Counted from the stretch's first letter, positions 6,615-6,868 are shown. The stretch is DNA of 64,000 bases from Thermoplasmatota archaeon (GCA_038884455.1 JAWABU010000001.1:11263-75262); one strand, 5' to 3'. Notes: generated by a model not told the origin, from the sequence alone. Numbers and translations are program-made.

Positions 6615-6868
6615 AGTGGTTTGACAGCGTACCAGGAGCCAATAGATTTCAAGCAGTGAAGCTTACCCCATAAGGTTCCCGAAGGAACCAAACGAGGCTC
6701 TCCACCTAGTCTAAAGGTTCCAGCCCTCTTCAGAGGGTAGTCTTCCCATGGGTTCTCACACCATAGTACCAAAGATTACGCAGGTAGGCTTAACTGCCGG
6801 GTTCGGGATGGGACCGGGTGTTTCCCCACCGCTTTGACCGTCAAACCACTGCTACTCTGAATGTATGA
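6615..6868 (-). rRNA. 5S rRNA. The conventional ~130-nt core is about 6735-6868, with an apparent ~130-nt insertion between helix V and the 3-prime strand of helix I.
   Basis: Minus-strand read AGUGGUUUGACGGUCAAAGCGGUGGGGAAACACCCGGUCCCAUCCCGAACCCGGCAGUUAAGCC... matches the archaeal 5S consensus. The only complement to the 5-prime helix I strand (CUGUCAAACCACU) lies at 6615-6629, enclosing extra UUCG and UGAA tetraloop hairpins. Confidence 0.55.

Follow-up and report, generated by a model that had tools for sequence, protein, structure and literature searches.

The last gene of the rRNA operon in the DNA analysed here, a stretch of 64,000 nucleotides from a Thermoplasmatota archaeon (hereafter the window), is probably a functional 5S rRNA gene with a Halococcus-type expansion segment of 105 nt. 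Expanded 5S rRNA in archaea was reported in Halobacteriales only (PMC7530397, PMC7812874), and transfer among members of that family was invoked to account for its patchy distribution (Stepanov and Fox, 2021, PMC7812874). In Halococcus morrhuae, whose 5S expansion goes back to Luehrsen et al. (1981, as cited in PMC7812874), a 108-nt insertion is located between C108 and G109 in H. marismortui numbering (Tirumalai et al., 2020, PMC7530397). The Halococcus 5S is 231 nt long (PMC7812874), and direct RNA sequencing and cryo-EM revealed that the segment is retained in the mature molecule (PMC7812874, PMC7530397). Homologs of this expansion were identified in Halalkalicoccus, Halomarina, and Halodesulfurarchaeum (PMC7812874; PMC7530397). 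The text of the 2021 survey makes no mention of Thermoplasmata or Thermoplasmatota (PMC7812874), and the full-text literature searched contained no report of 5S expansion in either; within this literature, the Thermoplasmatota expansion is thus an unreported, phylum-level extension of a known element.

The window has a G+C content of 40%, and its minus strand contains a complete archaeal rRNA operon in the order 16S (10204-11671), tRNA-Ala(UGC) (10009-10080), 23S (6893-9821), and 5S; all features described below are on the same strand. The 23S-5S spacer occupies 6851-6892, between the end of the Rfam LSU match (6893) and the start of helix I, and is 52-79% identical between the window and its relatives. 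A preliminary description had put the 5' end of the 5S at 6868, a position that falls within this spacer; the gene starts at about 6850. The complete expanded 5S gene spans 6615-6850 (~236 nt, including a 5-bp extension of helix I) and is the single 5S gene within the 64-kb window. About 35 nt past its 3' end, a T-rich tract read from the sequence (UCUUUUUCUU, 6570-6579) is a candidate for the operon terminator. The window also encodes class I LysRS and PGK. The relatives of this LysRS at 68% identity include Thermoplasmatales archaeon SCGC AB-539-N05, a single-cell genome of Marine Benthic Group D.

The Rfam model 5S_rRNA (RF00001) matched 6727-6845 (minus strand) with 79.3 bits, compared with a gathering score of 38, which places the gene in the 5S family. 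The 3' end of the match, at 6727, lies inside the first hairpin of the insert, which answers the covariance-model check suggested in the preliminary description. The helix I that the Rfam alignment builds from the nearby 3' sequence contains three non-standard pairs, in agreement with the earlier observation that helix I finds no complement nearby. The distal complement is found 215 nt downstream: AGUGGUUUGAC (6850-6840) is perfectly complementary to GUCAAACCACU (6625-6615), and with G-U pairs allowed helix I comprises 14 bp (6850-6837 with 6615-6628), just as the eleven perfect and roughly 14 total pairs described before. Eleven perfect pairs within ~300 nt have a chance expectation of ~7e-5 (300 x 4^-11). 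The minimum-free-energy fold of the 247-nt stretch includes the distal closing helix (z = -3.9), and the insert folded alone (6634-6738) gave z = -4.0. According to the Rfam alignment, the 5' part of the 5S core (6739-6850) runs from the 5' strand of helix I (AGUGGUUUGACGGU, 6837-6850) through helix IV to GGGAAGACU, and includes helices II and III, loop C, the 5' strand of helix V, and loop E. The expansion segment then interrupts the 3' strand of helix V at 6634-6738 (boundaries +/- 1-2 nt), in the part that joins loop E to the three-way junction; the site corresponds to position 104.1-105 in archaeal core numbering or C108/G109 in H. marismortui. The structured insertion enclosed by helix I that had been proposed is therefore present, at 105 nt instead of the ~130 nt first given. 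Immediately after the insert, GGUAC (6633-6629) pairs with GUAAU (6775-6779) and restores the outer part of helix V, and the 3' strand of helix I follows (GCUGUCAAACCACU, 6615-6628; assigned from the fold and covariation). With the distal strand as partner, pairing in helices I-V amounts to 89-100% in an alignment of 27 sequences. Helix I is paired in 96.9% of alignment cells, with both-side changes in its outer extension, and outer helix V in 95.6%, with position 74/235 varying among U-A, A-U, and G-C. These data show that both helix I and outer helix V require a transcript that extends through the insert.

Comparison with the 5S genes of relatives, also suggested earlier, recovered the same insert in at least 65 other loci. 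A scan of genome collections with a broad 5S-core pattern listed 120 loci, 114 of them bacterial, and among the matches listed six archaeal loci shared the 5S core. In five of the six (L070, L089, L091, L108, and L118), the same site is occupied by an insert of 96-108 nt. The sixth, at the low-coordinate end of the L061 sequence on its minus strand (Thermoplasmatales archaeon JdFR-43), is a 5S gene of normal length that has no insert. The metagenome scan, in which an insert-sized gap was required, gave at least 120 loci; about half of the matches listed came from bacterial 5S genes that happen to be followed by GCYGTCA and were removed by requiring the TGACGG strand of helix I, which left at least 57 loci with a genuine expanded archaeal 5S. 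Three further genomes, all reached by synteny from PGK, contain the insert. Two of them are L243 (GCA_053492495.1), whose 16S is 98% identical to that of the window, and L245 (GCA_014894715.1), with 93-94% identity. The third, L248 (GCA_038740275.1), is an independent assembly of the same species; it is 99.1% identical to the window over 21 kb and identical at 341 of 341 positions in the 5S region. No rRNA operon was present next to PGK in L244, L246, or L247, and the contigs of L249 and L250 end before the site. In total, at least 66 insert-bearing loci, the window included, and at least 42 distinct sequences were collected, with inserts of 96-110 nt in the relatives. They can be categorized into three subtypes: the window type, in which the 5S is linked to the 23S, and the L118 type and the abundant soil type A, in both of which the 5S gene stands alone.

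Some additional features of these loci were noted. Between PGK and 16S the window has a second tRNA-Ala (anticodon CGC, 12728-12799) and a small ORF (12167-12514), both on the minus strand; L243 and L245 have this tRNA at the same place, and the counterpart of the ORF was called with an HTH_24 domain in L243, L245, and L248. The 5S gene is directly upstream of two very large ORFs on the minus strand (3714-6395 and 602-3793), which encode 893 aa without a Pfam match and 1063 aa with a DUF2341 domain, respectively, and both are syntenic in L243 and L248. The 23S gene of L245 contains a 690-nt insertion (L245:16164-16853) at the position matching nucleotide 1985 of the window 23S, and its Rfam LSU match spans 3615 nt compared with 2929 nt in the window; this insertion may be a 23S intron.

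The insert is present in at least three deeply diverged groups of Thermoplasmatota, with 16S identities down to 80%. Compared pairwise, not on a tree, the 16S of the window is 88.6% identical to that of L194, 79.8% to that of L227, and 81.1% to that of L061. The 16S of the insert-free L061 is 87.0% identical to that of the insert-bearing L194 and 86.6% to that of the insert-bearing L227, so that L061 is nearer to these two lineages than they are to the window. This closeness, seen in 16S sequences, suggests that the segment was lost in the L061 lineage or was spread laterally.

The insert-free gene also fixes the insertion point. The 5S of L061 is normal and ends in GGGAAAGGC GGUAUGCUGUCAAGCCACU, and its alignment reads GGGAA-AGGC followed directly by GGUAU-GCUGUCAAG. 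At the junctions, the window has GGGAAGACU, the insert, and GGUACGCUGUC, where L061 joins GGGAAAGGC to GGUAUGCUGUC. Thus the insertion point is the C108/G109 junction reported for Halococcus (PMC7530397). L061 ends in the same strand as the window, and the distal strand of the window is therefore an ordinary helix I strand. The junctions of the expanded gene of Halococcus (L241) are likewise GGGAAAACUG, the insert, and GGUUCGCCGCC, and the insert-free gene of haloarchaeal type in L225 reads GGGAAACUC joined to GGUUCGCCGCC.

The insert has two arms, the short hairpin P1 and a long one composed of helix P2, an asymmetric YA/GYUNNAAM loop, helix P3, and a distal tetraloop hairpin. P1 (CCCUC-UGAA-GAGGG, 6724-6737) is paired in 99.2% of cells, and both sides have changed in 4 of its 5 pairs. 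P2, the base of the long arm, is formed by the 5' strand GGAACCUUUAGA (6710-6721) and the 3' strand UCUAUUGGCUCC (6635-6646), as the consensus structure and covariation indicate, with both-side changes in 7 of 10 pairs. An outer stem GGAGCC/GGCUCC had been suggested before; covariation instead pairs GGCUCC (6640-6635) with GGAACC (6721-6716). Above P2, the 8-nt strand GCUUGAAA of the internal loop (6647-6654, consensus GYUNNAAM) faces CUA (6707-6709), and in the alignment this loop is kept across subtypes; it reads GUUCUAAC in type A and, outside the alignment, GUUACAAC in Halococcus. P3 pairs GGUGGAG (6706-6700) with CUUCACU (6661-6655) and encloses the distal arm (6655-6706 together); 98.8% of its cells are paired and both sides have changed in 4 of 6 pairs, for example from U-A in the window to C-G in L209. 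Within the distal arm, P4 (CCUCGU, 6697-6692, with AUGGGG, 6671-6666) was assigned from the minimum-free-energy fold and a by-eye comparison of window-type sequences and is outside the pair counts. The arm is capped by the apical hairpin GGUUCC-UUCG-GGAACC (6674-6689). This hairpin and P1 had both been recognized in the preliminary description, and both covary in relatives.

Independent minimum-free-energy folds of the inserts of the window, L070, L118, and Halococcus gave the same plan, with the asymmetric loop at the same place. In these folds the loop is 2-nt/8-nt in Halococcus and type A and 2-nt/6-nt in L118, and that of the window is similar, not identical. In silico, the two arms of the insert and the two halves of helix V form a four-way junction, and the canonical 5S core stays intact. 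By eye, the conserved internal loop was also considered as a K-turn or loop-E motif, an idea dropped for lack of fit to the tandem G-A consensus. The variable part of the segment is its distal arm, also between Halococcus and Thermoplasmatota. Two variants were noted: L159:528-766, of the L118 type, has an apical arm that is ~10 nt longer and lacks the UUCG loop, and L171:7928-8146, of type A, is without 12 nt in the 5' strand of P2 (...GAGGAGGG running directly into ACCUAGG...), which may reflect either degeneration of this copy or faulty assembly.

Covariation supports the complete structure. In the MAFFT alignment A1 (27 sequences), 96.1% of cells are paired, compared with 32-46% when partner columns are slid; both sides have changed in 33 of 67 pairs, and none of 500 shuffles reached any of the observed measures. 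For the insert alone, both-side changes were found in 18 of 24 pairs in alignment A3, which was fitted to the model and so leans toward the structure; the MAFFT alignment gives the same picture. The insert is 93% identical to that of L243 and 83% to that of L245, values comparable with the 98% and 86% of the 5' part of the 5S core, whereas the tRNA-23S spacer has 75% and 56% and the downstream flank 32% and 44%. On these sequence identities, the insert evolves like rRNA, at about the slow pace of the 5S core.

A BLAST search of the plasmid collection PLSDB found 5S genes on two plasmids of Halococcus dombrowskii. The sequences NZ_CP095007.1 (L241, 130842-131757) and NZ_CP095009.1 of strain H4 match the window 5S equally well; the copy read, on NZ_CP095007.1, is an expanded 5S that follows the 3' end of a 23S gene. 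Its insert is ~108 nt long, a length with which the 105 nt of the window agree. In register, Halococcus reads GGGAAAACUG / CCUCGCAAGAGG GGCC AAGUGUGAGCC CA GGAGCG ... CGCUCC GUUACAAC GGCUCAUAACUAGU / GGUUCGCC, and type A reads GGGAAGCCCG / CCCUCCUUUGAGGAGGG CUU GGGCCGGCGACC UA GGUACG ... CGUGCC GUUCUAAC GGCCGCCGAUCC AU / GGAACGCC, where slashes mark the ends of the insert. Two covariance models, R2 with a hand-set structure and R3 rebuilt after realignment, were made from Thermoplasmatota inserts only, without 5S core and without any Halococcus sequence; they match the window (6634-6740) at 61.2 and 55.3 bits, respectively. Both matched L241 at 500-610 end to end, R2 with 23.1 bits (E=0.012) and R3 with 25.3 bits (E=0.001 in 0.9 Mb), where the E-values are rough owing to a shortened calibration; the best background matches reached 11-14 bits, at most 13.7. 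An earlier model, R1, whose RNAalifold structure had only 10 pairs, gave E=0.065 beside an equally good chance match, and a sequence-only nhmmer search with an insert-only profile did not detect the Halococcus insert. The homology signal consequently depends on structure and is of moderate strength, and it was obtained on one species, H. dombrowskii. It is concluded that the segments of Thermoplasmatota and Halococcus are most probably homologous. The shared site, the same two-arm plan, and detectable homology reinforce the Halococcus precedent given in the preliminary description.

The two systems share the insertion site in the 3' strand of helix V, an "asymmetric V" of two arms that forms a four-way junction (in silico for the window), a short first hairpin, the CCYAGG motif, a 6-bp P3, and the GYUNNAAM loop. 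They differ in the distal arm of the Halococcus insert, which is 12 nt longer than that of the model (35 vs 23 positions) and unalignable with it, and in their 5S cores, which are lineage-specific. The hosts also differ: the window belongs to another phylum, the Thermoplasmatota, of mesophilic, non-halophilic, uncultured organisms from soil, sediment, and subsurface, and some Thermoplasmata lineages have a stand-alone gene with its own promoter. Retention in mature ribosomes was demonstrated for Halococcus only. The bacterial 5S expansions (Thermoanaerobacterales, Halanaerobiales, Clostridiales, and Pseudoalteromonas; PMC7812874) are likewise self-folding insertions in an otherwise canonical 5S and are usually missed by annotation (PMC7812874), but they are located in the helix III bulge, loop C, or helix IV (PMC7812874), are mostly shorter (13-109 nt), and have no sequence or structural relationship to the segment described here. 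The archaeal rRNA and tRNA introns of the bulge-helix-bulge type resemble it as insertions in stable-RNA genes of archaea, whereas the window insert has no such motif at its boundaries and its internal structure is conserved well beyond the needs of excision.

The stand-alone genes reveal the extent of the transcription unit. The 60 nt upstream of the gene were compared in L070, L089, L091, L124, L126, L134, L166, L196, L118, L144, L159, L170, L212, and L216, and a conserved TATA-like box, cctgATATAt in type A and ggTTTAATAtc in the L118 type, ends ~23-25 nt upstream of the 5' strand of helix I. T-rich or pyrimidine-rich tracts directly follow the distal strand of helix I. The box and the tracts bracket the whole ~230-nt unit, and the transcription unit therefore encloses the insert.

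Four other readings of the locus were weighed against that of a retained, Halococcus-type expansion. The distal complement might be a precursor processing stem, with the 105 nt as a structured 3' trailer and the mature end near 6727-6735; the preliminary description had offered such a long processing helix beside its alternative of a 5S of ~250 nt with a 3'-proximal expansion. Long processing stems are known to flank archaeal 16S and 23S genes, and the Rfam model does end at 6727. This end is a model artefact, because Rfam cuts the Halococcus gene in the same way although that 5S is 231 nt long (PMC7812874). The nearby sequence can form neither helix I nor outer helix V, which the sequence after the insert restores; the insert-free L061 has the very same 3' strand in its normal helix I (GCUGUCAAGCCACU), and in the stand-alone genes terminator-like tracts come after the distal strand and complete the bracketing of the unit. 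The trailer reading is thus extremely unlikely, and the comparative evidence favours the expansion, in a gene of ~236 nt. It is also very unlikely that the gene is a disrupted or decaying pseudogene with a functional 5S elsewhere in the genome. Only 64 kb of the genome are in view, pseudogenised copies of expanded 5S genes were described in some bacteria (Stepanov and Fox, PMC7812874), and the metagenome variant L171 is without 12 nt of P2, but the gene lies where expected, last in an intact rRNA operon; its core, with 79 bits, shares 83-98% identity with relatives; covariation in the helices of both core and insert extends over lineages with 16S identities as low as 80%; and the gene is identical in the independent strain-level assembly L248. 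An assembly artefact is contradicted by the operon position, by covariation, by the comparison with L061, by the promoter and terminator elements on either side of the unit, and by the independent assemblies. A repeated or mobile element was rejected as well, since R3 with filters off found a single copy in the window. R3 matched each of 39 loci once, every time within the 5S, and had no match in 54 background loci; the other Rfam families matched the insert only by sub-threshold chance (mir-2, PhotoRC-I).

The two remaining readings accept a functional gene. The insert could be an intervening sequence that is transcribed and then spliced or excised, leaving a mature 5S of normal size or in two pieces; this is a minor possibility. 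Stepanov and Fox warned that, absent RNA data, 5S insertions may be excised like rRNA introns (PMC7812874), the insert is a self-contained folded module, and the 23S of the related genome L245 appears to accommodate a large insertion. A permissive scan of 12 sequences for bulge-helix-bulge motifs (two 3-nt bulges with a 4-bp helix between them, spanning both exon-intron junctions) returned 8-27 scattered chance matches in each, none of which lay at both boundaries or was kept across the subtypes, so that no subtype has the motif at the insert boundaries. The homologous segment of Halococcus is seen by cryo-EM in mature 5S (PMC7812874, PMC7530397), and the conservation and covariation of loops and helices far from the junction are more easily explained by a role in the mature RNA. 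It is unlikely, too, that a retained expansion arose independently of the Halococcus segment, with site and shape converging on one permissive, solvent-exposed position. The site is the sole one identified for insertions in archaeal 5S and is sterically unhindered, so independent insertions could converge on it (PMC7812874), and both the failure of the sequence-only search and the different distal arms are in keeping with such an origin. Against it, the structure-aware models placed the Halococcus insert 11-12 bits above any background, end to end; the CCYAGG motif, the 6-bp P3, and the GUUNNAAC loop are found at the same relative positions, and the lengths are nearly equal (96-110 nt vs ~108 nt).

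Under the preferred reading, in which the gene bears a Halococcus-type expansion segment, the insert is most likely retained in the mature RNA, by homology with Halococcus. In H. morrhuae, the sole 5S species of the cell keeps the segment, which projects from the central protuberance of the 50S subunit. By the same homology, a mature 5S of ~226-236 nt with a flexible, solvent-exposed arm would be expected in the Thermoplasmatota. More speculatively, the conserved adenine-rich asymmetric loop and the apical hairpin would be the likeliest contacts for a protein or rRNA partner. As to origin, a homologous segment, 5S cores that follow their lineages, and an insert-free lineage among insert-bearing ones would fit a module that moved laterally, recombining via the conserved flanks of the 5S, or an ancient one that was lost repeatedly. 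We propose tentatively, as a broader and doubtful view, that the segment is a widespread rRNA module, with the Halococcus insertion as one of its branches, that moved between archaeal phyla (or is ancient and was repeatedly lost) and persists because its adenine-rich loop and apical hairpin bind a specific ribosome-associated partner.

A practical consequence concerns annotation. The RF00001 match ends inside the first hairpin of the insert in the window (6727-6845), L243:17214-17332, L245:17850-17969, and L241:396-514; it is therefore likely that MAG collections mis-annotate expanded genes and that 5S databases lack them, and RF00001-based pipelines would under-call them as ~119 nt.

A kind of segment that had been known for ~40 years from a few relatives of Halococcus is now found in another phylum, and the same module in Thermoplasmatota changes the Halobacteriales-only picture of archaeal 5S expansion (PMC7812874). 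The segment has nothing to do with high salt; at least 57 independent metagenome contigs carry it, and it is common in nature and not a rarity of halophiles. The at least 42 distinct, covarying sequences define a conserved core of P1, P2, the YA/GYUNNAAM loop, and P3, and thereby specific nucleotides to target experimentally. Lateral spread of rRNA expansion segments between phyla also becomes testable by phylogeny. If the broader proposal is true, this would be the first documented instance of lateral transfer giving archaeal phyla a common rRNA expansion segment, and a functional appendage of the 5S rRNA would be present in some of the most abundant uncultured archaea of soil and sediment.
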